This document shows positions 2,172 through 29,939 of a DNA stretch of 32,000 bases, piece after piece. The position numbers were made by a program, and so were the translations under genes. Origin of the DNA: Thalassolituus maritimus (GTDB lineage Bacteria > Pseudomonadota > Gammaproteobacteria > Pseudomonadales > Oceanobacteraceae); NCBI RefSeq assembly GCF_040372045.1, contig NZ_BAABWH010000005.1, one strand, 5' to 3'. The notes under the pieces are model-generated. The model had not been told where the DNA came from. It saw only the letters and a program-made list of their open reading frames with translations, and made no database searches. Position 1 is the first letter of the stretch; every line of letters begins with the position of its first letter.

Positions 2172-2203
2172 ATTCGGAACCTCTGTGTAACTTGTTCAAC
2201 TGC

Positions 2204-4096: not shown

Positions 4097-4115
4097 GATT
4101 TTTATTCTCCGCAAC

Positions 4116-6968: not shown

Positions 6969-7244
6969 ACATATACCTGTCATGTGTTGTTATGGTTATC
7001 AGATGCGTTGGTACACGCATCCCTTGCGTATATCAGCAATCACCTGACTATAATCCCGTGGCGTCACACCCTCATCGCCCGAAAGTATGATTCGCCTCCT
7101 TAAACCGGGGCATTTTGTATCTGATCGTAATCAAACATAGTTCAAATCCGCCAACCTACCAAACCGAGGGATAGGATTTATACGAGCCTTTGACATAGAA
7201 TAGTCGGCCTTTTAAACCAACCCACCCCGAGACAGGAGATTCCT

Positions 7245-8435
7245 ATGTCGTCCAATCAGGATTCCGTTGTAATTGTTGCTGGCGCCCGTACCCCTATGGG
7301 TGGCTTTATGGGCAGCCTCAGCACCGTTTCTGCACCCGAGCTTGGCGCAATCGCGATTGAAGAAGCCGTTAAGCGTTCAGGCCTGCAGCCTGCGGACATT
7401 CAGGAAGTCATCATAGGCAATGTATTGTCTGCGGGTCTGCGCCAGGGCCCTGCCCGTCAGGCGATGCGTAAAGCCGGTCTGCCAGACAACACAGGTGCAA
7501 CCACGATCAACAAACTGTGCGGATCAGGTATGAAAGCTACCATGATGGCGCATGACGCGATCAAAGCAGGTTCTGTTGATGTCGCAGTCGCCGGTGGCAT
7601 GGAGTCGATGTCCAAGGCACCTTATATCCTTGAGAATGCGCGTGGCGGTTACCGTATGGGCCATGGTGATCAAGCAAAAGATCACATGTTCTTTGATGGT
7701 CTGGAAGACGCTGAGACCGGCAAACTGATGGGCGCTTTCGCTCAGGACATGTCCGACAAGAAAGAATACACCCGCGAGCAGATGGACGAATACGCGATCC
7801 GCTCACTGAACCGTGCAAAAGCGGCGATTGAGAAAGGTCTTAACACTGCTGAAATCGTACCGGTTACTGTAAAAAGCCGTCGCGGTGAGACTGTTGTTGA
7901 GCAGGACGAACAGCCATTCAACGCGAACATCGAGAAAATCCCATCTCTTCGCCCTGCTTTTGCAAAAGATGGCACCATTACGGCAGCAAATGCTTCATCC
8001 ATCTCTGATGGCGCATCTGCTCTGGTACTGGCGCGTGAATCAGTCGCGGCCGAGAAAGGTCTGACTCCTGTTGCTCGCATTGTTGCGCACAGCACTCACT
8101 CACAGCACCCTTCTGAATTTACAGCGGCTCCATGTGGTGCGATTGAAACACTGCTGGCGAAGACTGGCTGGACTAAAGACGACGTCGATCTTTGGGAAAT
8201 CAACGAAGCCTTCGCTATGGTAGCGATGATGCCAATCGATGCATTCGGACTGGATGCTGAGAAAGTAAACATCTACGGCGGTGCCTGTGCACAGGGCCAC
8301 CCTGTTGGCTCTACTGGCTCACGCCTGATCGTGACCCTGATGAACGCTTTGAAGAACACTGGCGGCAAGAAAGGTATTGCTGCTCTGTGTATCGGTGGTG
8401 GTGAAGCAGTTGCCGTTGCAATCGAAATGATCTGA
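7245..8435 (+). CDS. Acetyl-CoA C-acetyltransferase (thiolase)
   Basis: 396 aa; 'INKLCGSGMKATMMA' active-site Cys, 'NEAFAMVAMM', 'GGACAQGHPVGSTGSR', C-terminal 'ALCIGGGEAVAVAIE'. Confidence 0.95.
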   Translation: MSSNQDSVVIVAGARTPMGGFMGSLSTVSAPELGAIAIEEAVKRSGLQPADIQEVIIGNVLSAGLRQGPARQAMRKAGLPDNTGATTINKLCGSGMKATMMAHDAIKAGSVDVAVAGGMESMSKAPYILENARGGYRMGHGDQAKDHMFFDGLEDAETGKLMGAFAQDMSDKKEYTREQMDEYAIRSLNRAKAAIEKGLNTAEIVPVTVKSRRGETVVEQDEQPFNANIEKIPSLRPAFAKDGTITAANASSISDGASALVLARESVAAEKGLTPVARIVAHSTHSQHPSEFTAAPCGAIETLLAKTGWTKDDVDLWEINEAFAMVAMMPIDAFGLDAEKVNIYGGACAQGHPVGSTGSRLIVTLMNALKNTGGKKGIAALCIGGGEAVAVAIEMI

Positions 8436-9482: not shown

Positions 9483-9594
9483 AATGTGATATAACACTCA
9501 ATAACGATGGACATCAGCTTGCAACGGCTGATCAATCATGGTCAACTATTTGACGTTTTTACGCCTGTTCAGAACACCACACAGAGACGGATCT

Positions 9595-10380
9595 ATGTTA
9601 CTCCTACGGACGTTTATCATCAGCCTTTTTTTCTGCCTTCCTGTGCACGCTATATCCAGCGATGGCGCACCTTTGGCCGAAGAGCTGCGCGTCTTCAAAC
9701 TCAGCACGGATGTGAAGCTGCTACTGCTTAAGTATTACCACGTTCAGGCCGACGAAGGAAATTCACAACTCGTTGAAGAAGTTCTGCGTCATAGAGATGA
9801 AGTTGCCTACCAGAAAGACCGTTTATTCCAGGAAATGTCGGAAGGCTACAGTGAGAAGCAGAGCCGGATCGACGGGCACTGGGTCGAATTCAATACTTTG
9901 CTGGATCAGAATATTAACGAAATTCGGGAGAGCAATTATCCGGAACTGCAGGTCGTCACACTGATGCGTAAAGCTCAGCGGGCCATGCTCGACGAGCTGG
10001 AACAACTCTCGCAAAGTATCCTCAGCAATAACGAAGTCTCTCTCTCTGAGCTGACTCTGTGGCAGCGCGACCAGAAGAATTTATTAATCGAGGTTGTTGA
10101 GCGCTACATTGAGCGTGCGGCGTCTTCCATGGGTGCTCCGCTGACCATCGACAGTGTCGATATCAACGTTCTGTGCCAGCGTTTTGATCGAGGTATCGAA
10201 GACATGCTTACGCGTGTGTCCTCGTCTGAAGCGCAACGCCTGTTGAATAAAGTGCGCAGCCAATGGCTGTTTATCGAAACCGCCGCTACAGACACCAACG
10301 CGCGCCTGATCCCTTTCCTTGTAATGCGCTATGCCGACAGCATCCTCGCACGCCTTGATGATGTGGCTCACCATATCTGA
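9595..10380 (+). CDS. Exported, largely helical hypothetical protein
   Basis: ORF 9538..10380. Internal ATG at 9595 gives a signal peptide (MLLLRTFIISLFFCLPVHAISS) followed by alpha-helical sequence. No family recognised. Confidence 0.65.
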   Translation: MLLLRTFIISLFFCLPVHAISSDGAPLAEELRVFKLSTDVKLLLLKYYHVQADEGNSQLVEEVLRHRDEVAYQKDRLFQEMSEGYSEKQSRIDGHWVEFNTLLDQNINEIRESNYPELQVVTLMRKAQRAMLDELEQLSQSILSNNEVSLSELTLWQRDQKNLLIEVVERYIERAASSMGAPLTIDSVDINVLCQRFDRGIEDMLTRVSSSEAQRLLNKVRSQWLFIETAATDTNARLIPFLVMRYADSILARLDDVAHHI

Positions 10381-10523: not shown

Positions 10524-11114
10524 ATGAGTTTAATTGTCTTCGATATGGGACGCCGGGTAGAAACCCCGGTTGCATCCCCCCGCAGAAGAATAAGTCCCCT
10601 TTCCGGCATCAGCCGTACGGATGCCGTCGAGCAGCAAAACGATCATGATGGCGAGCTCCTGACCTATTCCCGACAGGGACAACAGGAGCATGACGAGCAT
10701 TCACCTCAAGCTGTCGCACTCACTTCTGACATTATGATCCAGCCTGTTATCACAGTTGAAAGTGGTGCTTCTATTGGGCACGCCTATTCTCTGATGAGGC
10801 AACACGGTATTCACCATCTACCTGTGATGGACACTGATCACCGTGTACTGGCCATGGTATCTGACCGCCTGATACTAAGATCTCTGGTCGAAAATAATGC
10901 CAGTAATGAAGACCCCGTCATACGTATCGCTGCCAGACCCGTATACTGTACAGAAGAAGACGCAGATATTCGTCAAACGGCCCACCTGTTATGCGAATAC
11001 CACATTGGTGCCCTACCAGTACTGAATGATAAAGAACAACTGGTGGGCATCGTGACAGGCAGCGACCTGTTGCACGTTATCAGTGATTACGGGCCTTTGG
11101 AATTATGGGCCTGA
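10524..11114 (+). CDS. Tandem CBS-domain protein
   Basis: 196 aa; 'IMIQPVITVESGASIGHAYSLMRQHGIHHLPVMDTDHRVLAMVSDRLIL' and 'RPVYCTEEDADIRQTAHLLCEYHIGALPVLNDKEQLVGIVTGSDLL'. Confidence 0.9.
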   Translation: MSLIVFDMGRRVETPVASPRRRISPLSGISRTDAVEQQNDHDGELLTYSRQGQQEHDEHSPQAVALTSDIMIQPVITVESGASIGHAYSLMRQHGIHHLPVMDTDHRVLAMVSDRLILRSLVENNASNEDPVIRIAARPVYCTEEDADIRQTAHLLCEYHIGALPVLNDKEQLVGIVTGSDLLHVISDYGPLELWA

Positions 11115-11181
11115 CAAGCCACTCATCATTGACAATAAACGCCTGCAATAACAACAACAGCAGGCTATGGAGTGAATTACT

Positions 11182-12546
11182 TTGGCTAAACAATACGAAT
11201 TGATCCATCCGAAAACCCATCTTCGTGTGTTGTCACAGCATGAAATACAACAACTCAAAGACGTAGGAAGTGGCGCGCATGAGATGCTACGACGCTGTTC
11301 CTTTGCTGTTTTATCTGCCGGTAGCATGGAAGACGATTACACCCGCCTGGAAGAAAGCTATCGCGATTTCAGTATCAGCGTAGAACAGGAAGAGCGTGGC
11401 ATTGTTCTGCAACTCAGTGGTGCTCCCTCTGGCGCGTTTGTCGACGACGAAATTATCCGCGGCGTCAGGGAGCAGCTTTTCTCGGTACTGAGAGACATCC
11501 TCTACGCCGAAGAAAATATTCTTAAAGCCCATCGTTTTGACCTTAGCAAAAGTGAAGACATTACCAATGCCGTCTTTCACATTCTACGCAATGCTAACCT
11601 CCTGCAACCCGACGTCGAACCCAAACTCGTCGTATGCTGGGGAGGACATTCGATTCCACCCAATGAATACCAATACACCAAAGAAGTCGGCTACGAACTA
11701 GGCCTACGCGGTCTCGATATCGGTACCGGGTGTGGACCGGGGGCAATGAAGGGACCAATGAAAGGTGCCACCATCGGACATGCCAAACAGCACATCCGAA
11801 ACGGTCGCTATATCGGCATTACCGAGCCGGGCATTATTGCCGCAGAATCTCCCAACCCGATCGTAAATGAACTGGTTATTCTGCCAGATATAGAAAAGCG
11901 CCTTGAAGCATTCGTACGCATGGCACACGGCATTATTATTTTCCCGGGTGGCCCGGGTACAGCGGAAGAAATTCTCTACATACTTGGTGTGCTTTCACAC
12001 CCAGCCAATAAAGTTATTCCTTATCCATTAGTGATTACAGGACCAGAAGAAACCCGTGATTACCTGATGGACATTGATCGTTTTATTGGCGATACACTCG
12101 GGAAAGAAGCGCAGTCGCGCTACGAACTGATCATTAATGATCCTGTGACCGTCGCCCGTAGAATGAAAGCAGGCATGGAATCTGTACGCCAGTATCGTCG
12201 CGATAATAACGATGCCTACTTCTATAACTGGACATTGAAAATCGACCCTGATTTTCAGGCACCGTTCGAACCTACCCACGAGAATATGAAAACGTTACGA
12301 CTGAACCGCGATGCGCCTTTTCATGAATTAGCTGCAGACCTGAGGCGTGCGTTTTCTGGGATTGTAGCGGGTAACGTTAAGGCTGATGGCGTCGAGTTGG
12401 TACGTAAACATGGTCCTTACGAGATCCATGGTGACGCCGACATCCTTGATGGCATGGACCGATTACTGCGAGCGATGGTTGCCCATGGTCGAATGAAGAT
12501 CAGCGGTAACTACGAACCTTGCTACCGCATCGTAAAAAACGAGTGA
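11182..12546 (+). CDS. ppnN: LOG-family pyrimidine/purine nucleotide 5'-monophosphate nucleosidase (YgdH/PpnN)
   Basis: 454 aa; 'CWGGHSIPPNEYQYTKEVGYELGLRGLDIGTGCGPGAMKGPMKGATIGHAKQ', 'GIIIFPGGPGTAEEILYILG' (PGGxGTxxE). Confidence 0.93.
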   Translation: MAKQYELIHPKTHLRVLSQHEIQQLKDVGSGAHEMLRRCSFAVLSAGSMEDDYTRLEESYRDFSISVEQEERGIVLQLSGAPSGAFVDDEIIRGVREQLFSVLRDILYAEENILKAHRFDLSKSEDITNAVFHILRNANLLQPDVEPKLVVCWGGHSIPPNEYQYTKEVGYELGLRGLDIGTGCGPGAMKGPMKGATIGHAKQHIRNGRYIGITEPGIIAAESPNPIVNELVILPDIEKRLEAFVRMAHGIIIFPGGPGTAEEILYILGVLSHPANKVIPYPLVITGPEETRDYLMDIDRFIGDTLGKEAQSRYELIINDPVTVARRMKAGMESVRQYRRDNNDAYFYNWTLKIDPDFQAPFEPTHENMKTLRLNRDAPFHELAADLRRAFSGIVAGNVKADGVELVRKHGPYEIHGDADILDGMDRLLRAMVAHGRMKISGNYEPCYRIVKNE

Positions 12547-12574
12547 TTTGCTTCACGTGGATCAGCACCCCGCA

Positions 12575-14209
12575 TTAATGCGAGGTTTCCTGAGTAGCGT
12601 GCAACTGAATGCGTTCGGTTGCACGCTGCGATAGGCCCGCGGCATGGTTCATAACGTGAAAAATGACGTTCTGCTCGTTCACACCTGAAATCAACGGCGC
12701 ACCGGGTCCTCGGGCATAAATAGCAACATCCTCGCCGCCATGTGTTTCTGCAGTAAGTGGAACCAGCGCTTCCTGGTGATAGCCGACCGACTGAGTGTCT
12801 ATATCGGTAATGTCCTGACGACCAAAGGTCACTGGTTCTTCATAGACTACCTCAGGGTCTGTCTGAACGCCCAGTGCATAGTGGCCTCGACCGTTCATAT
12901 ACCCCAGAGTCGTATAGGGTTTACCGTCTTCCGCGAGCGTCGGTTCACTTTGCCCAACACCAACGACTTTTCCGAGAATGGGATTGCCGCGCTTGGGGTA
13001 GCCTGCCATTGTAAAAACATGGCTATGATCTGCAGTAACGATAATCAAAGTGTCGTCTTCTGAAGTCATATTTAATGCCATACTGATCGCATTCGAAAAC
13101 TCCCGGGTTTCATGCAGAGCATTAAACGCACTACCGGCGTGGTGCGCGTGATCAATGCGACCCGACTCGACCATAAGAAAGAAGCCTTCCTCGTCCGCGT
13201 CGGCCTGCAACAACTCCAGCGCTTTTTGAGTCATCTCACTCAATGACGGTTCGCCTGCTTTATCATTCTGACGATCGATTTCGAAGCGCATGTGAGTTTC
13301 TTCGAATAAGCCCAGCACAGGCAAAGTCGACAAGGACGCGAAGGTCTCAGAATCAAATGCGAACTGACCAACCGGATTCAGCTTCTGCCACTCAGAAATA
13401 AGATGGCGACCATCTGTGCGGTCACCCTCAGTCTCACTGCGCGCATCTGCGGTATTCGAGGCAGCATCCGCCGGCAGAAAATGTCGACGACCTCCGCCAA
13501 ATGCCACCTCAATACCGTCGACAGCAACTCCATAAGTCGAAGCTGTACGTGTTTTAAAATCAACAAACTGAGACGCAATGTCCACGCAGCCAGCGGCAAC
13601 GGCGTCTTCCGTCATATCGGAAATATCTTCCCAGTTGCGTTCGGCAGAATACGCGTATGTCGCCGCGGGTGTTGCGTGAGTCAGTCGCGCGGTGGTCACA
13701 ATACCGGTTCTCATACCGGCAAGCTCAGCCATTACCAGAGCGGAGGGCATTTGTAACTCTGCCTGATGGCAGGCACCCCGTTGTGCCTCTTCACTCAGGC
13801 CTATCACCCCTGCATCCGTCTTTACGCCTGTCACCATCGCGGTCATAGTGCCAGCCGAATCCGGGGTTTGCGCATCCACGTTGTAGGTTTTACTGAGCCC
13901 AGTAAAGGGTAACGTCTCAAAACTAAGCTGATACTCTTCACCACTCAGCCCCAGTAATTGCCCTGCGTAAATACGCGAAGCCGTCACGGTTGATATTCCC
14001 ATACCGTCGCCTACAAACAGAATGACATTCTTAGCTTGAGTGTTGTCTTTAAGATAGCTGGCTCGCTCCTCGACGGCTTTTTTCCCTGCGATATACCAAG
14101 GGTTAGTCGAATCAAAGAGGTCAATAGAACCAGAAGAGCTACGATCGATATCGGAGCAGCCCGACAGCAGAAATACAGAGGTAAACAGCAAAAGGTGGGA
14201 ATATTTCAT
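12575..14209 (-). CDS. Alkaline phosphatase, predicted lipoprotein
   Basis: ORF 12575..14218, likely start at 14209 (MKYSHLLLFTSVFLLSGCSD, lipobox). 'KNVILFVGDGMGISTVTASRIYAGQ', 'MVESGRIDHAHHAG', 'VTADHSHVFTMAGY', 'THGGEDVAIYARGP' match the alkaline phosphatase (PhoA) superfamily. Confidence 0.93.
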   Translation of the reverse strand: MKYSHLLLFTSVFLLSGCSDIDRSSSGSIDLFDSTNPWYIAGKKAVEERASYLKDNTQAKNVILFVGDGMGISTVTASRIYAGQLLGLSGEEYQLSFETLPFTGLSKTYNVDAQTPDSAGTMTAMVTGVKTDAGVIGLSEEAQRGACHQAELQMPSALVMAELAGMRTGIVTTARLTHATPAATYAYSAERNWEDISDMTEDAVAAGCVDIASQFVDFKTRTASTYGVAVDGIEVAFGGGRRHFLPADAASNTADARSETEGDRTDGRHLISEWQKLNPVGQFAFDSETFASLSTLPVLGLFEETHMRFEIDRQNDKAGEPSLSEMTQKALELLQADADEEGFFLMVESGRIDHAHHAGSAFNALHETREFSNAISMALNMTSEDDTLIIVTADHSHVFTMAGYPKRGNPILGKVVGVGQSEPTLAEDGKPYTTLGYMNGRGHYALGVQTDPEVVYEEPVTFGRQDITDIDTQSVGYHQEALVPLTAETHGGEDVAIYARGPGAPLISGVNEQNVIFHVMNHAAGLSQRATERIQLHATQETSH

Positions 14210-14246
14210 GGTCGTCAACGCCAGTCATGCGAATGACTGCATGGTA

Positions 14247-14921
14247 TCAGTAACGTCTTACAGTGACGACAACCCGACGATCAGCTTCACGTTGATCTTG
14301 AGTGGTAATGTCCCCTTCCAGAACCTTCGGACGACTATCCGCGTAACCCGATGCTTTAAGACGTTCTTTCGCAATTCCAGTTTGCAGTAAATACTTCACG
14401 ACACCGGTCGCGCGGGCCGCAGACAACTCCCAGTTTGAAGGGAATTCATCTGTCGCAATGGGTAAATCGTCGGTGTGCCCTTCCACTTCAATCATATGAG
14501 AGCCATGACTGACGTCTTTGATCACCCTTCCAAGCTCCTGCAACATAGGCTGCGCATCGGGCTTTAGCTGCGCCGACCCTGAATCGTACAGCGCCACATT
14601 TGCAAATTCGACCTGTATACCGCGCGGATCAAGCGTGACCGTTACCTGATCCGCCAACCCATTCTTTTCAACGTACTCGTCGAGCCCCTGCTTAATTTCC
14701 GTAAAAGGCGTCGCATTATTTTCAGATGAAATCACCTCTGCGAGGCCTTCTTTCAAGGACTCGATTTTTCCCTGATTTAAATCCGATACCGCGAGTATCA
14801 TCACGAAAAATGCCAACAGCAACGTAATAGCGTCAGAATACGTCACTAACCAAGAGCTGGAAGAATCATCAAAATTGGGACGACGTCGTCGCAATCCACG
14901 CTGACGAGATGCATGGCTCAT
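14247..14921 (-). CDS. MotB/PomB-like stator protein with C-terminal OmpA-like peptidoglycan-binding domain (non-flagellar context)
   Basis: 224 aa. 'SSSWLVTYSDAITLLLAFFVMILAVSDLNQGKIE' (single N-terminal TM with ion-binding Asp) and 'YDSGSAQLKPDAQPMLQELGRVI...IEVEGHTDDLPI...SNWELSAARATGVVKYL'. Start overlaps the upstream stop (TGATG). Confidence 0.93.
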   Translation of the reverse strand: MSHASRQRGLRRRRPNFDDSSSSWLVTYSDAITLLLAFFVMILAVSDLNQGKIESLKEGLAEVISSENNATPFTEIKQGLDEYVEKNGLADQVTVTLDPRGIQVEFANVALYDSGSAQLKPDAQPMLQELGRVIKDVSHGSHMIEVEGHTDDLPIATDEFPSNWELSAARATGVVKYLLQTGIAKERLKASGYADSRPKVLEGDITTQDQREADRRVVVTVRRY

Positions 14922-15724
14922 CAGAGTTCACCCGATAACACGGGGGTTCGTACAGACGGCTTAAGAAATGCGCTCAGCCTGTCCTGCATATACAGTGCCG
15001 TGCGCTTCTCACTCAACAGGACAAACCCCTCAGACACCAGCTGATGGCGGAAATACATGGTTTCCTGTTTTTCTGTAACCTGATTTGCAGCTGGCTTAAA
15101 AAATAAGTTCGACAGTAAAACACCATACAGCGTCGTGATTAATGCCAAGGCTAGGCCTTTACCCAAACCCGCCATATCCCCATTCAGATTATCCAACATG
15201 ATAATCAACCCGACTATGGTACCCACCATCCCAAAGCCGGGTGAGTACACAGCCATGGTATTCAATACCTTGCCTTCCAACGTGTGGCGCTGCCAGGTTG
15301 CATCCATCTGATCGGTCAACATAGTGCGGATATCATGATTGCTGTAGCCAGCTCCCATGAGATCCAGACCGGCGCGCATAAATTCATCGTTCTGCTCTTG
15401 CTTCGTCAAAGATTGCTCAAGCGCCACAATGCCACCTTGACGATAAATCGTACTCCACTCAACGAAGCGATCCGTCACCTGCTTGAGGTGTTTCTGTGAT
15501 GTTGGCGGGTGAAAGAAGGTGTACAGCATGCTGCGTAAGGCACGAATCACATCCATGGTGGAGTAACTGATTAAGGCTGCCGCCAAGGTACTACCAAACA
15601 CCAGCCCGAAACTGGAAACACTGATAAATATGACATGGTTATCAGTGGCGCTGGCCACTGCGAACACAAGGAGACCAATGCCTGCACAAAAACCAATTAG
15701 CGTACTGAATGAAAAACGGAACAC
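14921..15724 (-). CDS. MotA/PomA-like proton/sodium channel stator protein (non-flagellar context)
   Basis: 267 aa, GTG start with AGGAG RBS. Multi-TM; 'LEGKVLNTMAVYSPGFGMVGTIVGLIIMLDNLNGDMAGLGKGLALALITTLYGVLLSNLFFKPAANQV' matches the MotA/PomA TM3-TM4 block, including both conserved prolines. Confidence 0.93.
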   Translation of the reverse strand: MFRFSFSTLIGFCAGIGLLVFAVASATDNHVIFISVSSFGLVFGSTLAAALISYSTMDVIRALRSMLYTFFHPPTSQKHLKQVTDRFVEWSTIYRQGGIVALEQSLTKQEQNDEFMRAGLDLMGAGYSNHDIRTMLTDQMDATWQRHTLEGKVLNTMAVYSPGFGMVGTIVGLIIMLDNLNGDMAGLGKGLALALITTLYGVLLSNLFFKPAANQVTEKQETMYFRHQLVSEGFVLLSEKRTALYMQDRLSAFLKPSVRTPVLSGEL

Positions 15725-15766
15725 GACGATACTACTCCTTAACTCTTAGCCCCAAACCTTCAGAAC

Positions 15767-17701
15767 CTAGCTCTGCTTCACTTCAGCCAGCTCATCCATA
15801 GAGAAGCGACCTTCACGAATAACATCACGCATTTTTTGCACAACCTGACGACGGGCCGATTCAACCTGATCCTGTGCGGTCGCCGCTTCTGATACTTTCA
15901 GTTCATTAATAATCCCCGCGCGCAACTTGGCGGGCAACGCAGCCAGTACGTAACGTTTAAACTCAATAGACGTATTGCACAGCGACGCAGTTAAAATCGC
16001 GGTATCCAAGGTGCGTAACTCATTAGAAATAATGCGATCTGGTGTCCTGCTCAAATCAGCAAATGTGAAGTACACCTGACGTAAGCGATAGTAGGTTTCC
16101 GGCTTCTCAGACTTGAGTGTTTTAAGCATCCGGGTTTCTTCACTGGTGGTCATCTTATCCAGCATGCCGATTAATACCGACAAACCATCCGCCGTAATAT
16201 TCTCAAACGAAGGGACCGTCAATGACGCTTTGGCCAGGCGATCTGCAACATCTTTAAAAGCCGAGACGGGGAGACTCTCAAATTGTCCCAACTCGAATGC
16301 GATATCCGCCAACTCACGCGAGTCCAGTCGCAGAATAATATCCGCCGACCGCTGGGCCGGTAGCTGCGACATGACTAACGCCTTGATGCGTATATCCTCA
16401 TCCTTAATCAGGAACAGCACCTGGGAGTCGTTCAGTTTATTCAGAAAGGCAAAAGGCTGAGTATTTGAGGCGTCGTCCTGCTGGCGCTCAAGACGTTGAG
16501 AAAACTGCTCCATGCCTTCCGATAACTGCTCTTCATTCCAATCGCCTTCTTGTAGTAAGTCGTCGATCTGTTTCCAGTCTGCTGGCGTGAGATGCGGCGC
16601 CAGACTGGCAAATAAGCTCTTACCCATCGTTGCAGATAACGAAGCAACCTCAAATGCCTGCGCGCTGCCCAAGGCCTGTGACACCGCCTGCTGAAAGCGA
16701 TGTGGCTGCGACAGTCCCTGGCTCACCAGTCGTTGGCGGGATTCATTGATTCGATAACGGAGTGCTGCCGTATCGCCCTCCGACTGGCGGGCAATGCCAG
16801 TTCCCTTAGCCGTGTCAACGGGAGTATCAAGCCCGGGATGAGCTGTGGCCATTGAAGTAATTGGCTGATTGAGACGACGCCACAGTGCAAGGAACGCCAG
16901 CACGAGAAGCAACCCGACAACCAACAGGCTGGCTAACCAAATCCAAGGGGTGTATGCCTCCCAGAAAGAGAGGGGCGTTTCCTCTTTTTTCAGGTGACTA
17001 AAACCTGTTTTGACAATATTTAATGTATCTCCACGGAGTTCATTAATTTGTGCTTTGCGCGTCACCAGGTTTTTCAAAAACTCGATCTGTTCGTCTTCTA
17101 AGCCATTATCGACGACTAATGTAATCTCGAGTTTTTTAATGATATTGCGATAGCCTATGGTTTTCTCCGAGGGCTGACCGGCTTGCGCCTGTTGTTTTTG
17201 CTGTGCCACGTCTTTGAGCTGATCCGCGTAGGAGATAATCTCCTGACGCTCTTTCTCAAGCTGCTGCAGCTGAGAATGCAGCGCACGTAATTTCTCGTTA
17301 TTTTCCTTCAAGAGCGGCATTTCGCTGACAGGCAGACCAGGTAATTCTTCGAGGTCATCCAAATTATTGGATTCAATATCAGGCAGCGAAATACTGCCAC
17401 TGACTCGCGGTTTAGCCGGAAGTTGTGGAGGCTGCTGAGCTGGTGCTGGCTGACCCGATTCACGTACGACGGTGCGTGCGCGTTCAATGACTGCATCAAC
17501 CTGAATAATAAAGCGGTTATTACCGAGATAGGACTCAATATCCTGACGTAAGCGCGCCTCAAGGTCACTGCGAAAACGCGCCTCTTCTACCTCATCTTTT
17601 TTTACCGGCACCTCAAATGTGTCTTGAGAGTGTGCCATGAAGGGTAACATCAGAAGAGAGCAAACAAGCACCCAAAGATAACGACGTATTGAATTCATCA
17701 T
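15767..17701 (-). CDS. Exported/inner-membrane protein with FliF-like periplasmic and TM segment fused to a FliG-like cytoplasmic rotor module
   Basis: ORF 15767..17716 (649 aa from TTG); likely ATG at 17701 with GAGGG upstream. Using the 649-aa numbering: signal-like segment ~7-30; 'LEARLRQDIESYLGNNRFIIQVDA' (FliF ring-like); 'NIIKKLEITLVVDNGLEDEQIEFLKNLVTRKAQINELRGDTLNIVKTGF' (FliF C-terminal ring-like); TM 'PWIWLASLLVVGLLLVLAFLALWRR' (~258-281); 'PFAFLNKLNDSQVLFLIKDEDIRIKALVMSQLPAQRSADIILRLDSRELADIAFELG' (FliG middle); 'VYFTFADLSRTPDRIISNELRTLDTAILTASLCNTSIEFKRYVLAALPAKLRAGIINELK...QVESARRQVVQKMRDVIREGRF' (FliG C-terminal). Confidence 0.85.
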   Translation of the reverse strand: MMNSIRRYLWVLVCSLLMLPFMAHSQDTFEVPVKKDEVEEARFRSDLEARLRQDIESYLGNNRFIIQVDAVIERARTVVRESGQPAPAQQPPQLPAKPRVSGSISLPDIESNNLDDLEELPGLPVSEMPLLKENNEKLRALHSQLQQLEKERQEIISYADQLKDVAQQKQQAQAGQPSEKTIGYRNIIKKLEITLVVDNGLEDEQIEFLKNLVTRKAQINELRGDTLNIVKTGFSHLKKEETPLSFWEAYTPWIWLASLLVVGLLLVLAFLALWRRLNQPITSMATAHPGLDTPVDTAKGTGIARQSEGDTAALRYRINESRQRLVSQGLSQPHRFQQAVSQALGSAQAFEVASLSATMGKSLFASLAPHLTPADWKQIDDLLQEGDWNEEQLSEGMEQFSQRLERQQDDASNTQPFAFLNKLNDSQVLFLIKDEDIRIKALVMSQLPAQRSADIILRLDSRELADIAFELGQFESLPVSAFKDVADRLAKASLTVPSFENITADGLSVLIGMLDKMTTSEETRMLKTLKSEKPETYYRLRQVYFTFADLSRTPDRIISNELRTLDTAILTASLCNTSIEFKRYVLAALPAKLRAGIINELKVSEAATAQDQVESARRQVVQKMRDVIREGRFSMDELAEVKQS

Positions 17702-17712
17702 ATTGCCCTCCC

Positions 17713-18390
17713 TCAACGCAGGCGTGCCAGACTGGCACGTACCTGATCAAGCTCAGGATCGAGTTCGAGCGCCTGTTCCCAGCTTGCCCGCGCCTCTGGA
17801 AGCAAACCCATCTTGTAATAGATACTTCCCTTGAGGGCATGCGCTTGTGCTGAATCCGGAATCAACTCGAGTGCATCATTGGTCTGATCAAGCGCGTCCC
17901 AGTATTCCTTTTTATAAAACAGGCTTTGGGCCGAAAGGATGTGTTTCGTCATCGTTTCGCTACGACTGAGTTTTTCCTTCTGCTGCTCGCTGATTTTTCC
18001 CTCTGCATCAGCGTGATTTTCAGCCGCGATATCACTAGCAGTGCCTTCCATCAGTCCGTCGCTCTGATCTTCCACTTCAGCATGACTCTGCGGCAAATCC
18101 ATAACGAACTTCACATCAGAATCACCCGCATCAATGGTCATCAGAATGTCATACCCTTCACCGTAGCGATGGATGTGCATCAAGCCATGTTGCTTTTTGG
18201 CTTTCTCGACCACCTTCTCCAGTTGAGAGATTTCTTCAACCTCGGCCTCTTCTTCCGGTTCGACAGGCTTCCCCGGATCGACCCATGGGCTTGGGTTAAA
18301 CCCTTTTACCATCTTGTTGGTACGTTCGTGCGAGCAACCCTGAATTCCCAGAGAGACAAGGAGCACGGCAACTATCATTCCTGCTTTCAT
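17713..18390 (-). CDS. TPR-containing lipoprotein, component of the motor-like cluster
   Basis: 225 aa; lipobox MKAGMIVAVLLVSLGIQGC; C-terminal TPR 'AQSLFYKKEYWDALDQTNDALELIPDSAQAHALKGSIYYKMGLLPEARASWEQALELDPELDQVRASLARL'. AGGAGA RBS overlapping the upstream gene's stop. Confidence 0.85.
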   Translation of the reverse strand: MKAGMIVAVLLVSLGIQGCSHERTNKMVKGFNPSPWVDPGKPVEPEEEAEVEEISQLEKVVEKAKKQHGLMHIHRYGEGYDILMTIDAGDSDVKFVMDLPQSHAEVEDQSDGLMEGTASDIAAENHADAEGKISEQQKEKLSRSETMTKHILSAQSLFYKKEYWDALDQTNDALELIPDSAQAHALKGSIYYKMGLLPEARASWEQALELDPELDQVRASLARLR

Positions 18391-18398
18391 ACTATCTC

Positions 18399-19454
18399 CT
18401 AGAATCTCAGACCAAGTGACAAGTCATAGCTCGCACCACCAAGCTTCCCTGTGTCTTCCAGACCAGAAACACTCGTCCATTTCGCTGTGCTTTCCGGCAA
18501 GTACGTCACGCCATAATCAATGAAGCCGTCTTTGAAAAAGGGGAATTCAAAACCAAAACGGAAGACCAGTGCGTTGGTGTCGTTAAAGAACGCCTGCCCC
18601 ATACCCAGATAAACTTTCGTATCGATAAGATCATCCATGCTGGGAATATCAGCGATGATCCTCCCTTCCAGATTTATGCCTGAGATATCGAAGTTTTCGC
18701 GATTAGAGAAATTGCGGAAATACTCGAACGCCAGGGTGTATTGCAACTGATCGTCGAGGCTCGTCGTTTCGCGGCGTCGGATGCCAAATACGGTGACGCC
18801 TTTTACCTCTTCACTGTCTGTACTGGACAGGTGGGCCCGCTCTGCAGAAATTCCCCATGCGCCGACAAGGAATTCATAATTTACGCTGTCAAAGCCCTCT
18901 ACTTCCTGTTCCAGAGTCGTTTTCTTCGAATATTCTTTCAGCCACAGTAATTTGTTGTCGCGGGCATCGACCATACGCAAGTTAATGGTGAATTTGTTCT
19001 GCTCGACTGACGCGTTCCAGAACAAAAAAGCATCCGCTCGCACATGCTGCCCTAGCTTCCGTAACGCCTGATTATCAACAGCGACATGGCTGACCTCGAG
19101 CCGGTCTTCTCGCATTGCTACCTGCGTAGTTCTGCATTCAAGACATTGAATGACTTCAAAACGACCGCTATCCAGCATGCGCTTCATTAGCTTGTTCTCG
19201 ATCATCAAATGAACTTGCTTAGGAATCTTACGGTGCATCCGATCCCCGTTGTGATATAGCGCTACCCGCTTCACGGACTCGGGAAGGTCAATTAACTCTT
19301 CCTTTACCAGCGTTTTGTCGTCATCCAGCAGCTGAGTAAAACCCGTGTACAAAGATGAGCGCATTTCGGGTGGCTCAAGACCGGGAAGAGGTGTCTCTGC
19401 AAGACTGCTGAGCGGTAATAATATTACGGAGAGTAACAGTAACCGTCGGAACAT
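18399..19454 (-). CDS. Predicted outer-membrane protein: CsgG/FlgO-like N-terminal domain plus C-terminal beta-strand-rich region
   Basis: 351 aa; signal peptide MFRRLLLLSVILLPLSSLAE; 'SVKRVALYHNGDRMHRKIPKQVHLMIENKLMKRMLDSGRFEVIQCLECRTT....LRKLGQHVRADAFLFWNASVEQNKFTINLRMVDARDNKLLWLKEY' resembles CsgG/FlgO-type alpha/beta domains. The C-terminal half has alternating amphipathic strands and ends in 'YDLSLGLRF' (terminal Phe typical of BAM substrates). Confidence 0.7.
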   Translation of the reverse strand: MFRRLLLLSVILLPLSSLAETPLPGLEPPEMRSSLYTGFTQLLDDDKTLVKEELIDLPESVKRVALYHNGDRMHRKIPKQVHLMIENKLMKRMLDSGRFEVIQCLECRTTQVAMREDRLEVSHVAVDNQALRKLGQHVRADAFLFWNASVEQNKFTINLRMVDARDNKLLWLKEYSKKTTLEQEVEGFDSVNYEFLVGAWGISAERAHLSSTDSEEVKGVTVFGIRRRETTSLDDQLQYTLAFEYFRNFSNRENFDISGINLEGRIIADIPSMDDLIDTKVYLGMGQAFFNDTNALVFRFGFEFPFFKDGFIDYGVTYLPESTAKWTSVSGLEDTGKLGGASYDLSLGLRF

Positions 19455-19768
19455 CTGGGCATCCTGTATAGGTAAAACGCGAATACAGAGAGCTTAGTTC
19501 AGTACAGTAGACTCAGTTGAGGCGGCGACATTCCAACCTTTTGATTAACAAATGTTTTTTATTTGAAGATAAGATGACCGACAATAATCGAACGTCGTTC
19601 TATTTCACGAACGCCATTGAAATGCCGCAATGTGGAATGCAGCGGTAGGGAACTGGACAGTTTCAGCCGAACGCCAAAAGAGGTACCGAGAAACGACAAA
19701 CCGACGCCATAAAGACGTCAGCTTGTTTTCATTGGTAACAGATTGTCAGAGGTAAGCCGTTGATCTCG

Positions 19769-23289: not shown

Positions 23290-23784
23290 ATGCCAAGTGT
23301 CGTTATAAGTGCAGCGGTGCTCTTACTGCTGTGCTCTGGGGCCAGCGTAGCAGGAAATAAGTCAGCAACCGCTGAAGATTTTCGAAAAGCGCAGGACGAT
23401 TACTATGCCAGTGATCTTGATGCCGCCATCACCGAAGCACGCGAACGTACTCATCACTACGACTACAGCAGTGAATTTCGCTACGACCGCACTACGTCGC
23501 AAAGTATTCGTTTCTCACGCATGAGAAACAATGAACTTGAGCAACAGCGCATAGAAACCGCATCCTTGGCACCGACCAGTTCAGGTAACTCTGAAGACAC
23601 CGAATATAGTGCTGAAGGTAGTGCGGAAGTTAGTGGCGAATGGAATGCTGATGGCACCGAAGACGGTTTCCCGACCGACTTATTAGAACGTAATGACGTA
23701 CTGCCAACCACGGTCAGCCCAGCTGCCAGCCAGCAGATACAGCTGCCATCCAGTGGCATTCAAGTTCAAGTTAATGTGCGCTGA
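23290..23784 (+). CDS. Small exported hypothetical protein, member B of a tandem paralogous pair
   Basis: ORF 23236..23784; ATG at 23290, 10 bp after the previous stop, gives signal peptide MPSVVISAAVLLLLCSGASVAG; 'YSSEFRYDRTTSQSIRFSRMRNNELEQQRIE' aligns with 'VGYEWYNRTTSKSFPLPKMLNTEMNDLVIE' of the upstream gene. Confidence 0.75.
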   Translation: MPSVVISAAVLLLLCSGASVAGNKSATAEDFRKAQDDYYASDLDAAITEARERTHHYDYSSEFRYDRTTSQSIRFSRMRNNELEQQRIETASLAPTSSGNSEDTEYSAEGSAEVSGEWNADGTEDGFPTDLLERNDVLPTTVSPAASQQIQLPSSGIQVQVNVR

Positions 23785-24628
23785 GCTCCAGCCTCTGGCG
23801 AATAATACTCCGCGCTTTCTGCCCCATCACCAGTAACCTGCGATCACGCTGCCAGTAGTCCGCCGCTGCCGCAGGCAAAGCCGCAGCAACCGTCATCAGC
23901 TCTTCGGCAAGTGCTTCAAAGGCGTTTAACTGCTCCAGACAATAACCTTTCGACGACATCCGGTAACCACCGGCCAATGCCTGCATCACCGTCACCAGCT
24001 TGCTTTGATCTGACGCACTGTCTGACATCCTCAGACACCAGCCGGAAAACGCAAGTATGGTCATTACATCTTCATGGTATCGGAACGGCTTATTAATTTC
24101 GTTGTGCGCGTCGGCACAGTGAAAATGCGAGTCAACATGCGCCTCATTAAACTCGAGTGCGTGATGAGCTAACTCAGGAACCACGGGTTGCGCTGGGTCA
24201 GACGGTAATACAGAGACACCCTGCTCACCCGCCTTTACCCGACGACAAACCAGATCAGATTGGTCACGAGCAATGATATAGAGCCAGTCCATACCACTGT
24301 CGGCCAGCATAGCGTGACTCTTCCTACCCGATATCACGCCATTGTCTATGCAAGTAGACATTTCTGAGAGCGAGCGCAAGCCCTTTTCAGACACACAAAG
24401 ACATGCCCATTGCTCTGGAGACAGTGAAGAATCGACCGCGCGCATAGCAACCTGATAGCCGGCGAGAAATGCCGATGCAGGGATATCGGAACGCAACCCA
24501 GAAATAATGGCTGCCTCCGCAGGTTCTGAGGTTCGTAGTAATCGTGCCAGGTTCATCCTTAACGTATATGGCGTCGTCACTGAGAGTGCAGGCAAGCTCA
24601 GTGCCTGCACCCAGAGATCTGGCATCAT
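23771..24628 (-). CDS. Acyl-CoA dehydrogenase-like protein (short/divergent)
   Basis: 285 aa; 'CVSEKGLRSLSEMSTCIDNGVISGRKSHAMLADSGMDWLYIIARDQSDLVCRRV' resembles the ACAD middle domain, and the C-terminal half is helical like the ACAD C-terminal bundle. Overlaps the convergent gene end by 14 bp. Confidence 0.55.
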   Translation of the reverse strand: MMPDLWVQALSLPALSVTTPYTLRMNLARLLRTSEPAEAAIISGLRSDIPASAFLAGYQVAMRAVDSSLSPEQWACLCVSEKGLRSLSEMSTCIDNGVISGRKSHAMLADSGMDWLYIIARDQSDLVCRRVKAGEQGVSVLPSDPAQPVVPELAHHALEFNEAHVDSHFHCADAHNEINKPFRYHEDVMTILAFSGWCLRMSDSASDQSKLVTVMQALAGGYRMSSKGYCLEQLNAFEALAEELMTVAAALPAAAADYWQRDRRLLVMGQKARSIIRQRLELSAH

Positions 24629-24634
24629 GTGTAA

Positions 24635-25456
24635 TTAACCACCGCTCATTGCGTTCTGAATACGATCCAGACGGATCTGGATATCTTCGATTTCCAGTTT
24701 CATATTCAACAGATCGTTGTAACCCGCACCGCCACCACTGGCCGGAGCAGCCTTCTGACTATCCACTGTGGTACGAAGACTGTTAACGCTGGCTTCCAGC
24801 ATATCGATGCCTTCTTTATTCTGGGCAATAGATAACTCCAACCCAGAAGGCATAGCTGCCACACTGTTCTTTAATTCAGCCAGTTGTGCTTTCAATGCTT
24901 TGATATCGGAAGAACTCGCTCCTGAAGCACTGTTCACCGCAGAGCTGAGATTATTGAGTTTGGCTGCATTGGCATCAATATCCGCACGATTACGCTTGCT
25001 CGCCAAATCCCATAATTTCCGGATTTCGTTGTCCTGTTCACGCAAGACTACTTTAAGTGCATCTACCGAAAGATTCGCGTTTTCACCCGACGCCGAGAGA
25101 CGATTTTCAAGCGCTTCGATCTTACCGCCCTGCAGCAACAGAATATCCTGAGCAGCGGTCAGCTTCTGCTGAGATGACTCCAATAAAGTGTACATATATC
25201 CAGCGCCCGCCAGAGCACCGAGGGCGACGAGGAGGCTGACAACCGCCAAGCCCGATGAGCCCGATGAGCCTGAAGACCGCTGCACCGGTGCCGCCGCTGC
25301 AGTTGTCGCCTGTGCTGTTGGCGCTGTTGCTGCAGCAGTTAAGGGGTCAGTAGCCGGCGCACTGCGTTTCGCAGCACCTGCCTGTGCCAGACGTTGTTGA
25401 GCCTGACGACGAAGCTGCTGTTGCCGCTGCGCAATCTCTTCCTCTGTTGGTTTCAT
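24635..25456 (-). CDS. Single-pass membrane protein with coiled-coil periplasmic region
   Basis: ORF 24635..25465, likely ATG at 25456 (MKPTEEEIAQRQQQLRRQAQQRL...). Low-complexity Ala/Thr/Pro linker, TM 'LAVVSLLVALGALAGAGYMYTLL', then long heptad-like helices. Confidence 0.7.
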   Translation of the reverse strand: MKPTEEEIAQRQQQLRRQAQQRLAQAGAAKRSAPATDPLTAAATAPTAQATTAAAAPVQRSSGSSGSSGLAVVSLLVALGALAGAGYMYTLLESSQQKLTAAQDILLLQGGKIEALENRLSASGENANLSVDALKVVLREQDNEIRKLWDLASKRNRADIDANAAKLNNLSSAVNSASGASSSDIKALKAQLAELKNSVAAMPSGLELSIAQNKEGIDMLEASVNSLRTTVDSQKAAPASGGGAGYNDLLNMKLEIEDIQIRLDRIQNAMSGG

Positions 25457-25800
25457 TCGATACACCTTTTCTTGTTATTCCGTCCGGGTGACTGAACAGC
25501 GTGCTTCCCCAAAAGCTCAGTCACTACGACGCTTCGTTCGCGCTTCAATCTACGCGATACCCTTATGACTTTGAACCGTTAGTTTCCCTGATTGTCTACC
25601 GGTTGGCAATTTGTAAAGAAATGCTCAAGAAGACCTGTTAAATTTGAATCGAAACAAGGCCGTAGCCACGACAGACAGCGGCGTTATAATCTTTAGAATT
25701 ATTCAATAACGGAGCATTGAAATAGTACGAAACGACCCCATGTAGGTCACAACGGACATTTCAATAAATCCGGCAACCAACCTGAAATCGGAGAGAGACC

Positions 25801-27127: not shown

Positions 27128-29026
27128 TTATTTCTGAACAGGCAGTCCCTGGAACAGGCGTTCAAGCTGCATATCAGCTTCATCAACACCCAACTCTTCC
27201 GACACTGTAAACTCCCAGATGCCGTTGAATTTATCACGGGTCAGCGTCTTGGCTTTACCACCGTCATCGACAATGGTCGGGCGCAAGAACACCATCAGAT
27301 TACTCTTCACCTGATTAACGCTCTTAGAGCGGAACAACCAACCCAGTAATGGAATATCACCCAACAGAGGTACCTTGCTCACCACTTCACGAACGTCGTC
27401 ACGGATCAGACCACCCAACACGATCGTCTCACCGTCCTCAGACAGAATCATGGTTTTAATAGAGCGCTTGTTGGTAATCAGGTCAGCACTGCCAGCAACG
27501 GTAGTATTGGATACAGATTCCGCTGTCGCTTCCACTTCCAGTCGGATCGCCTCACCGTCGTGAATGTGAGGAATCACTTTCAACGTAACACCCACGTCCT
27601 GTCGATCAATTGTGGTGAATGGGTTTGTGTTGGTACTGGATGCTGTTTGCCCGGTCACGAAGGGAACATTCTGACCCACAACAATCTCAGCTTCCTGGTT
27701 GTCCAGCGTCATGATGCTCGGAGTCGACAACAGGTTGGTCGACGAATTACTTTTCAGAGCCTGAATAATGACACCGAAATCGATATCGCCACCAGACTCT
27801 TTAAACCCACCAATGGTCAGACCCGAGCCTACCGCGTTGGCGTAAGTTGATGGCCCGCCCGCCACTGCACCGGCAATGGTCGCAAGGTCTGGTCCGGCAT
27901 TGTTAAAGCTGGTTCCGGCAACAGGGGAGTCCAGATCACCACGAACCCACTGCACACCCAGTGCATCGCTGGTGTCGCCTGTCACTTCGATAATTGCCGA
28001 TTCAATCAGTACTTGCGCGCGACGTACATCGAGTGAATTAACCAGTTCCTGTACTTCTTTAAGGATAGAAGGCTCAGCACGCACAACGAGCGCATTCAGC
28101 TCTTCATCCGCGTGAATACCAACCTCGCCTTTCACCTTGGCTTCTTCGCCCGAACCCGTGCTGCTACCCATCAGGTTCTTCAACATCTCAGCCAGCTTGG
28201 TGGCATCGGCGTATTGCAGACGAATAACCTGAGCACTGCCGCTGAAATATGAAGGCTGGTCGAGCTGTTCGATCAGACCGCGGATACGCTCACGCGCCGT
28301 TTTCTCACCCTTGATGATAAGACGATTGCTACGCTCGTCTGCCACAACACGGATACTGCCAGCGGTGTTGTTATTGTCCGTATTTCCCTGAGAGACCTTC
28401 GATGGATCGAGGCTCTGCAACATGGTCACAACGTTGCCCACCCAGGCTTCTTTAAGCTGAATAACTTCAAGCTCTTCAGATCCTGAACGGTCAAGGCGGT
28501 CTATGATTTCCTCGATACGATTAATATTGATCGCGTGATCAGAAATAATCAGCGCGTTGGCCGATTTCACACCGGCCAGATGACCGTATTTCGCCACCAG
28601 AGGGCGAAGGATCGGCACCAGATCCAGCGCAGGCGTGTTCTTGATCATAATGACCTTAGTCAGCAACTCCTGACTGTCGACACCCGCTCGCTCTTCAAGG
28701 CTACGACCCGCTTGCTTCACATCGTTCTGCTGGATAATCAGCGTCACATCACCGGCGGGAACCGCCGCAAGACCATGAATCTGCAATACCGACAGGAAAA
28801 GTTCATAGACACCTTCCTGATTCATCGGCTCACTGGAGAGCACGCTGACCTTGCCTTTCACACGCGGATCAAGGACAAAACTTTTCCCTGTAATATCGGC
28901 AACCTGACTGATAAACGCTTCTATGTCCGCGTCCTTCAGATTGATCTGCCAGCTTTCATTCGCTTGCAGTGGCATCGCCATGCTTGCCATCAATAACATG
29001 GCCATCAGCCAACGTCTGAGCAACAT
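27128..29026 (-). CDS. gspD: Type II secretion system secretin GspD
   Basis: 632 aa; signal peptide; N0/N-domain 'INLKDADIEAFISQVADITGKSFVLDPRVKGKVSVLS', secretin domain 'VPLLGDIPLLGWLFRSKSVNQVKSNLMVFLRPTIV'. Confidence 0.97.
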   Translation of the reverse strand: MLLRRWLMAMLLMASMAMPLQANESWQINLKDADIEAFISQVADITGKSFVLDPRVKGKVSVLSSEPMNQEGVYELFLSVLQIHGLAAVPAGDVTLIIQQNDVKQAGRSLEERAGVDSQELLTKVIMIKNTPALDLVPILRPLVAKYGHLAGVKSANALIISDHAININRIEEIIDRLDRSGSEELEVIQLKEAWVGNVVTMLQSLDPSKVSQGNTDNNNTAGSIRVVADERSNRLIIKGEKTARERIRGLIEQLDQPSYFSGSAQVIRLQYADATKLAEMLKNLMGSSTGSGEEAKVKGEVGIHADEELNALVVRAEPSILKEVQELVNSLDVRRAQVLIESAIIEVTGDTSDALGVQWVRGDLDSPVAGTSFNNAGPDLATIAGAVAGGPSTYANAVGSGLTIGGFKESGGDIDFGVIIQALKSNSSTNLLSTPSIMTLDNQEAEIVVGQNVPFVTGQTASSTNTNPFTTIDRQDVGVTLKVIPHIHDGEAIRLEVEATAESVSNTTVAGSADLITNKRSIKTMILSEDGETIVLGGLIRDDVREVVSKVPLLGDIPLLGWLFRSKSVNQVKSNLMVFLRPTIVDDGGKAKTLTRDKFNGIWEFTVSEELGVDEADMQLERLFQGLPVQK

Positions 29027-29919: not shown

Positions 29920-29939
29920 TATTAATCAAAGCGCTCAGG

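Follow-up and report, generated by a model that had tools for sequence, protein, structure and literature searches.

A 32,000-nucleotide stretch of contig NZ_BAABWH010000005.1 of Thalassolituus maritimus, all of which was analysed and which we refer to as the window, contains five co-directional minus-strand open reading frames (ORFs) that span coordinates 14247-19454 as one operon-like unit (Table 1). These genes, designated A to E, code for a predicted outer-membrane barrel protein (A), a tetratricopeptide repeat (TPR) lipoprotein (B), a fusion of FliF-like and FliG-like parts (C), and a MotA/MotB-type stator (D and E). A preliminary description of this DNA had reported the genes to be tightly packed, and base-by-base reading of the junctions agrees: the A/B junction consists of the TAG stop codon, 8 nt and ATG, with AGGAG spanning the A stop; the B/C junction of TGA, 11 nt (GGGAGGG) and ATG; the C/D junction of TAG, 42 nt with AAGGAG, and the GTG start; and D and E share a TGATG overlap. 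The ATG start of C agrees with its closest homologues; residue numbers of C are nonetheless counted throughout from the TTG codon upstream. The closest relatives are those of Thalassolituus, with A being 100% identical to a T. maritimus protein, and C 97-98% identical to Thalassolituus sp. proteins.

The search for sigma70-like promoters within the five-gene unit gave none, and the unit has three terminator-like sites, below the 5.2 expected from shuffled sequences, so we reject a division of the operon by an internal promoter or terminator. A 313-nt leader lies between the gene A unit and phhB; it has no match to an Rfam family and no credible small ORF, and a riboswitch or small ORF was rejected on these grounds. 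A perfect 7-bp hairpin (CAGTCAT-tcgc-ATGACTG, about 14221-14238, minus strand) lies directly 3' of the E stop codon, but lacks a T tract and is therefore not a canonical terminator. The unit is flanked by genes for alkaline phosphatase, pterin-4a-carbinolamine dehydratase (phhB) and fumarase, and the remainder of the window contains metabolic and housekeeping genes together with a gspN/C/D fragment. The preliminary description had the flanks as metabolic and saw no fliM, fliN, flh, rod, hook or filament gene in the window; both statements hold, and there is no flagellar gene of any type in the 32 kb.

Table 1. Coordinates, within the window, of genes A to E and of features inside and upstream of them.
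Feature	Position	Strand	Remarks
Gene A	18399-19454	-	351 aa
Gene B	17713-18390	-	225 aa
Gene C	15767-17701	-	644 aa from ATG 17701; ORF extends to TTG 17716 (649 aa)
Gene D	14921-15724	-	267 aa; GTG start
Gene E	14247-14921	-	224 aa
FliF RBM3-like periplasmic domain of C	17009..17620	-	residues 33-236; AlphaFold2, Foldseek, phmmer, hhalign
LPGLP motif in proline-rich periplasmic loop of C	17330..17344	-	followed by 45-residue helix 133-177
Single transmembrane helix of C	16871..16966	-	residues 251-282; FliF TM2 equivalent; AlphaFold2, phmmer/hhalign alignment to FliF TM2
FliG-like N-M-C region of C, cytoplasmic	15797..16780	-	residues 313-640; Pfam, Foldseek
Torque helix of C, AKLRAGIINELKVS	15890-15931	-	in FliG-like N-M-C region
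R-x7-E pair of D, R95/E103	15416-15442	-	spacing as E. coli MotA R90/E98
Conserved upstream motif, GTACTGAACTAAGCTCTCT	19487..19505	-	core CTAWGCT; 51 nt upstream of gene A start

The candidate rotor protein is C, which has Pfam matches to FliG_M (2.7e-11) and FliG_C (9.3e-15) and a sub-threshold match to YscJ_FliF_C (E 0.0025; 18.7 bits against a cut-off of 23.8). In its AlphaFold2 (AF2) model, with a predicted local distance difference test (pLDDT) of 75, a signal peptide is followed by a periplasmic beta-alpha-beta/beta-alpha-beta domain, a transmembrane (TM) helix, a short linker and an all-helical region. The periplasmic domain (residues 33-85 and 184-236) is matched by Foldseek to the FliF RBM3/collar structures 6sd1, 7d84 and 8zdt (about 2e-3, probability 1.0) and is split by an insertion (residues 86-183) that contains a proline-rich disordered stretch, LPGLP and a long helix, and which occupies the site where FliF has its beta-collar. 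RBM1 and RBM2 are absent, with a single RBM3-like fold between the signal peptide and the TM helix, and the loop and helix replace the collar. A phmmer search of the PDB matches C to FliG (1.6e-13), to FliF, and to an engineered FliF-FliG fusion (8z4d), in which C residues 206-285 align to FliF 434-517, with shared RGD and TM2, and residues 426-630 align to the FliG half. The C family matches genuine FliF by hhalign at E 6e-6, and a profile of its distant members does so at 3e-11. Foldseek aligns the helical region with full-length FliG 3hjl (3.8e-10 over 320 columns) and with FliG of the Salmonella C-ring (about 4e-9), and superposes the last domain on the MotAB-bound FliG fragment 8ucs_H (TM 0.82, rmsd 1.7 Å). 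FliF and FliG are each matched by both sequence and fold, which makes C a natural, shortened FliF-FliG fusion. The preliminary description, which had made its proposal depend on FliG and FliF matches above background, is upheld on both, with two corrections: the FliF part comprises RBM3 and the TM helix only, and the FliG part is a full-length N-M-C arrangement in AF2 and Foldseek, not M-C alone.

Exhaustive searching with C yields 295 representatives (50% clustering) at E<1e-10. The annotations in public records are 'hypothetical protein', 'FliG C-terminal domain-containing protein' or, mistakenly, 'flagellar motor switch protein FliG'. Among the top 150 representatives there are 129 members of at least 500 aa, on which features were counted; an internal TM segment within the same periplasm-TM-FliG layout is present in 125 of these, RGD in 107, and LPGxP in 80-86. 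LPGLP is invariant in a close alignment of C (A1) and more than 90% conserved in alignments A2 and A5. The FliG M and C domains carry a charged torque helix, in which K597 aligns with E. coli FliG R281, and N604/E605 with D288/D289; among 24 diverse family members the first position is K or R in 20, position 604 is D, E or N in 14, and position 605 is E or D in 12. A MFxF-like hinge (YxTFxD) is conserved in these same members, and of the EHPQ FliM-binding motif just the Glu (E440) is kept.

D and E are, judged by their sequences, a flagellar-type MotA/MotB stator with torque residues, a channel aspartate, a plug and an OmpA-like peptidoglycan anchor, much as the preliminary description had it. 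D matches Pfam MotA_ExbB (1.5e-22) and its best PDB match is Clostridium sporogenes MotA (8ucs, 9e-32, 114 bits), with PomA at 100 bits. The segment YRQGGIVALE holds the torque-interface pair R95 and E103, and PGFGMVGT and ALITTLYG align to MotA and PomA, including the conserved Pro and Thr of TM3/TM4. E matches MotB_plug (1.2e-13) and OmpA (6.8e-17), its PDB matches include MotB, PomB and MotS, and its channel residue Asp30 (..VTYSDAI..) lies in the TM segment and is invariant in nine module MotB proteins. Neither protein reaches an NCBIfam equivalog cut-off (MotA/PomA/MotP/MotC or MotB/MotD/MotS): D scores 125-167 bits against the MotP, MotA and PomA models, the best being 166.6 against a cut-off of 394 (MotP), and the best matches of E are MotD (175.9 against 283) and MotS. 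As both fall below every such cut-off, they make up a subfamily of their own. Membership of the Ton or Tol-Pal systems was rejected, because D matches TolQ at E 0.076 only (NCBIfam) and hidden Markov model (HMM) searches found no TonB- or TolA-like gene in any module; Zorya (ZorAB) was rejected because D, a protein of 267 aa, scores 15 bits against ZorA (PADLOC) and A, B and C have no PADLOC matches.

Linkage of the five genes was followed in 48 loci, of which 36 are species-level loci from a genome scan and 12 are distant members obtained by contig look-up. The scan used alignment A1 and reached only genomes of the Oceanospirillales type (Thalassolituus, Oceanobacter, Bacterioplanoides, Oleispira, Bermanella, Oceaniserpentilla, Saccharospirillaceae and Gynuella); alignments A2 and A3 are more diverse and offered no sufficiently conserved stretch for a profile-based locus search, and a profile search with distant C members returned seven proteins. 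HMM searches find A, B, C, D and E contiguous in 43 of the 48 loci, and contig ends truncate three of the other five. The order A-B-C-D-E is found in gammaproteobacteria, including two Vibrio species, and in locus L041, D-E-A-B-C in L001, and C-A-B-D-E in two Elusimicrobiota loci and in L045 and L046, such that the module extends over Oceanospirillales, the two Vibrio species, Elusimicrobiota and unclassified metagenomic lineages. This linkage is far beyond chance, and the gene-neighbourhood survey that the preliminary description had proposed thus has the five genes as neighbours in every adequately covered relative, in three orders and among unrelated flanks. Protein identity falls to 20-30% across the loci while architecture and linkage persist, and retention of the set through rearrangement at such identities marks it as an obligate functional module. 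Genomes often contain incomplete 'half motors' (PMC12199754), and the five genes could in principle be what is left, in decay, of a second flagellar system that was lost, or a regulatory decoy that arose from one, with no mechanical function of their own. We regard this as very improbable, since all five ORFs are intact, catalytic and interface residues are kept across phyla, the set is retained despite permuted gene order and extensive divergence, and neither A nor B is a flagellar protein.

The flanking genes differ by lineage, with at least ten unrelated contexts, and a conserved sixth gene was rejected for this reason. The Oceanospirillales modules are flanked by fumarase and phhB, and that in L040 by type IV pilus genes on the opposite strand. 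L001 has cytochrome bc1 and, following the module, the polysaccharide-export genes BBP2_2, Wza, Wzc and Wzy (10614-16819), Vibrio nigripulchritudo (L048) has a response-regulator GGDEF protein and a 1307-aa AsmA-like protein (6953-8176 and 13419-17342), and the Vibrio agarivorans (L047) flank includes OmpA; the envelope-related neighbours in L048 and L001 are not conserved. In L042 (11496-15039) a module without A is followed on the same strand by genes for a MoxR AAA ATPase, DUF58, DUF4381, VWA and pilin-like proteins, in a Bat-like cluster. The alkaline phosphatase gene (PF00245) of the window (12575-14218, minus strand) begins 28 nt past the E stop codon; a PF00245 gene is also situated directly upstream of the module in an unrelated Elusimicrobiota locus (L044 7755-8912) and 2-5 kb from the module in several Thalassolituus loci (L004-L010), all of which may be coincidence.

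The two remaining proteins, A and B, are the predicted outer-membrane partners. The AF2 model of A (pLDDT 73) has a signal peptide, an alpha/beta periplasmic domain (about residues 60-178) and a small C-terminal barrel of about ten strands (about 190-351) ending ...GLRF. Foldseek matches the barrel to NspA, OmpA, Ail and OmpW, and the periplasmic domain to the LpoB and TolB N-terminal domains, so that the latter is modelled as an LpoB/TolB-N/GNA1162-like fold. No Pfam or NCBIfam family matches A at its cut-off, the sub-threshold matches being LpoB (0.03) and FlgO (0.06), and A has no sequence relative in the PDB; against the FlgO family PF17680 it scores 13.6 bits, below the gathering threshold of 22.6. 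The earlier assignment of A as an outer-membrane protein with a CsgG/FlgO-like N-terminal region is thus retained as regards the outer membrane and revised for the N-terminal domain, which is better described as LpoB/TolB-N-like. HMM searches place A orthologues in the L001, L041, L047 and L048 modules and give weaker matches for L040 and L044-L046. B was correctly recognised as a TPR lipoprotein: it has a lipoprotein signal (...LGIQG-C19), an acidic linker, a small beta region that is conserved, and, at the C-terminus, two or three TPR repeats (residues 147-222; Pfam TPR_1 6e-10). Its PDB matches are to generic TPR proteins only, its lipobox Cys is conserved in L001, L041, L042 and L043, and B always adjoins A or C in the loci searched. 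The MotB-like proteins of Elusimicrobiota (L040 12575-13570; L044 13758-14783) have an extra C-terminal TPR after a long low-complexity linker, which hints that TPR contacts may involve the stator.

In 19 of the 20 orthologous regions compared, the motif upstream of A (Table 1) has its CTAWGCT core at much the same distance. At the orthologous positions in L002-L036 the element CTGAACTAWGCT, with the same core, lies about 50-59 nt 5' of A in Thalassolituus and Oleispira, and nearer to the annotated start of A in Bermanella. It is probably a -10-like promoter element. No match to the sigma54 (GG-N10-GC) or sigma28 (TAAAG-N15-GCCGATAA) consensus was found in the 20 upstream regions, and control of the module by either factor was therefore rejected.

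We consider it reasonably probable that the five genes constitute a self-contained, flagellum-independent envelope machine whose rotor-stator core is homologous to that of the flagellar motor and is tied to the outer membrane. FliM and FliN are encoded neither in the window nor in the loci, and 47 of the 48 loci, as judged on locus neighbourhoods, have no fliM, fliN, flh, rod or hook gene and no other flagellar neighbour, be it for the export gate, the rod, the hook or the filament. Together with the missing RBM1, RBM2 and EHPQ and the want of a sigma28 or sigma54 promoter, this is not the picture of a displaced flagellar operon, which the preliminary description had named as an outcome that would undo it. 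An inner ring of a type III secretion system (SctJ/SctD) was also rejected, because the PrgH match is at E 0.098, that to YscJ_FliF_C is below cut-off, and linked secretion genes are absent. Swimming in Thalassolituus species relies on a normal polar flagellum (PMC9807766), and the module is therefore an addition to that flagellum and not its motor. Most free-living Elusimicrobiota are reported in a 2022 preprint to be without flagellar structural genes yet to keep fliG/motAB homologues whose role is unclear (bioRxiv 10.1101/2022.07.08.499144), and two of the module loci belong to this phylum.

Several points weigh against such a machine, in addition to the restriction of the flagellar gene count to locus neighbourhoods. 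L042 has B-C-D-E without A, and L043 has B-C beside insertion-sequence (IS) elements with no stator. Conservation at the acidic positions of the C torque helix is only about 50-60%, and the basic MotA-type residue is shifted by one position or missing in Elusimicrobiota-type modules. A and B could be a static scaffold and not an output. Moreover, the V. agarivorans module (L047 1-8516) adjoins flgT, flgO/flgP, flgN, flgM, flgA, cheV, cheR and flgBCD, which is the only flagellar-gene-adjacent context among the 48 and leaves room for a flagellum-associated role.

That role would be as an accessory of the normal polar flagellum, an extra periplasmic and outer-membrane scaffold with a specialised stator, on the lines of the H/T rings of Vibrio (FlgO/P/T, MotX/Y) or of PflA/PflB in Campylobacter, in which C co-assembles with or adjoins the MS-ring. 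The location directly beside flgT-flgOP-flgNMA in V. agarivorans speaks for such an accessory, as does the weak FlgO/LpoB-type signal in the N-terminal domain of A; TPR proteins scaffold stators in Campylobacter, and the Elusimicrobiota MotB carries a fused TPR. The hosts in which the module was first found are, furthermore, all polar flagellates (Thalassolituus; PMC9807766). However, the genuine FlgO and FlgT of V. agarivorans are encoded by separate genes beside the module, from which we conclude that A is not FlgO, and the other 47 contexts lack a flagellar neighbour. An accessory is also at odds with the promoter searches, with C, which brings a ring-building domain of its own and all of FliG yet lacks the motif that binds FliM, and with the retention of fliG/motAB in Elusimicrobiota that are reported to lack flagella. 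We consider it unlikely.

A flagellum-independent machine could work as follows. C would be exported with its N-terminus out, and its RBM3-like domain would oligomerise into an inner-membrane ring as FliF does; as the FliG part is covalently attached, this would set FliG-like domains on the cytoplasmic side as a ring in 1:1 ratio. D and E would assemble into MotA5B2-type units, with E held to the peptidoglycan through its OmpA-like domain and ions passing through the channel around Asp30. D would turn, pushing via R95/E103 on the torque helix of C (K597, N604/E605), so that the ring would rotate or be under torque. The periplasmic loop of C, with its proline-rich spacer, LPGLP and 45-residue helix, would reach toward the outer membrane and be held there by the TPR lipoprotein B, perhaps through a contact between LPGLP and the TPR, and by the periplasmic domain of A. 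With a rotor, a stator and an outer-membrane link, ion-motive energy would thus be transmitted to the outer membrane or cell surface, where the output might be surface movement, force transduction or envelope remodelling. The torque could be used for continuous rotation that drags surface components, in a Ton/Tol-like winch, or with A and B as a static cage that positions the stators.

The proline-rich spacer and the invariant tip motif of C recall TonB and TolA, both outer-membrane partners look like anchors and not channels or filaments, and the neighbouring genes, variable as they are, are often envelope-related (Wza/Wzc/Wzy in L001, the AsmA-like gene in L048, OmpA in L047). These features are consistent with a Ton/Tol-like force transducer in which the ring does not spin freely, and the proline-rich loops of C, with B and A as their clamps, are wound or pulled by stator torque to do work on the outer membrane; gating of the A barrel, lipid or polymer handling, and outer-membrane tethering are possible outputs. 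D and E are of the flagellar type, however, with a plug and a rigid OmpA anchor, features that are tied to torque on a rotor (PMC12505986), and no TonB or TolA homologue is present. A transducer of this type strikes us as improbable, and it is in any case a sub-variant of the self-contained envelope machine rather than a true alternative to it.

A stronger form of the proposal, to which we would give somewhat less than an even chance, is that the module is an autonomous rotary or torque-generating nanomachine that is not a flagellum, and the first use of a FliG rotor outside one, operating beside flagella in marine gammaproteobacteria and in their place in Elusimicrobiota. Such a machine could power an undescribed form of surface motility or energise the outer membrane, and could stand for a rotor-stator lineage that has no tie to the type III export apparatus and possibly predates it. 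No model in Pfam, NCBIfam or PADLOC describes A, B, C or the five-gene set, and no PDB description does so either; nor was a description of the module found in the searchable full-text literature, from which most subscription-journal papers fall out, such that a prior description is possible. Within these sources the earlier view that no named system has this composition is sustained. As the module fits none of the flagellum, the Ton and Tol systems, Zorya, the H-ring or the injectisome rings, we regard it as a new kind of system assembled from known parts.

FliG has been seen as a rotor protein of the flagellum only, and MotAB stators that have a plug and an OmpA-type anchor as engines of the flagellum only (PMC12505986), and a 2025 survey asks what rotor proteins do in genomes without filaments (PMC12199754). 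The module offers a concrete and testable answer for fliG and motAB without a flagellum, in the form of a minimal set of rotor and stator that comes with outer-membrane partners of its own. If it does rotate, it would be a new class among the ion-driven envelope machines (Ton, Tol, Gld, Agl and Zorya), a far simpler system than the flagellum for the study of torque generation, and an extant rotor-stator module without type III secretion that is relevant to models of flagellar origin. Predictions of motility from genomes that count fliG and motAB can be misled by the module.

Elsewhere in the window, the minus strand at 810-6983 encodes a DUF1329 (LolA-like) and DUF1302 outer-membrane pair together with a 955-aa protein with a bacterial lipase N-terminal domain, and the type II secretion genes gspD (secretin), gspC and a gspN-like gene lie at the right-hand end (27128-30719, minus strand). 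Three ORFs of 276-285 aa (23771-25465, minus strand, and 9538-10380, plus strand) have no Pfam match at E<=1e-5.

The known system that C most resembles is the flagellar motor core, with which it shares the RBM3 ring-building domain, TM2, FliG N-M-C, the torque-helix charges and the MFxF-like hinge, and D and E resemble flagellar stators in the R/E torque interface, the channel Asp, the plug and the OmpA-like peptidoglycan anchor. The module differs from the flagellum in lacking FliM/FliN, EHPQ, RBM1/RBM2, the type III export gate, rod, hook, filament, L/P ring and a flagellar promoter. Its FliF and FliG parts are joined in a single chain, a proline-rich loop carrying LPGLP and a long helix takes the place of the beta-collar, and its dedicated partners are a barrel protein of the outer membrane and a lipoprotein with TPRs. 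Engineered covalent FliF-FliG fusions assemble MS/S rings (Vibrio alginolyticus 8z4d/8z4g; Salmonella; PMC11481574), and C aligns to both halves of 8z4d; however, these are laboratory constructs with full-length FliF in a complete flagellum, whereas C is natural, shortened, and located away from flagellar genes. The Vibrio FlgO/FlgP/FlgT H-ring and MotX/Y T-ring, and the Campylobacter FlgP disk with PflA/PflB, likewise have outer-membrane-anchored or TPR periplasmic proteins that could position MotB-type stators. The periplasmic domain of A is modelled with a fold of the LpoB/FlgO class, but its FlgO score is below threshold, and no likeness of B to PflA/PflB was seen beyond generic TPR.

ExbBD-TonB, TolQR-TolA-Pal, GldLM/PorLM, AglRQS-Glt and ZorAB also couple an ion-driven inner-membrane motor of the MotAB family to outer-membrane components. 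Unlike the module, these non-flagellar 5:2 motors belong to ExbB/TolQ-like or other divergent branches, use a single-pass transducer (TonB, TolA or GldM), and have no FliG/FliF rotor, and D is nearer to MotA than to TolQ or ZorA. A 2025 stator phylogeny treats stators of the plug/OmpA type (the 'FIT' clade) as flagellar, acting by torque on a rotor and not by Ton/Tol-type transduction (PMC12505986). The module is rated as working most like the rotor-stator core of the flagellum.

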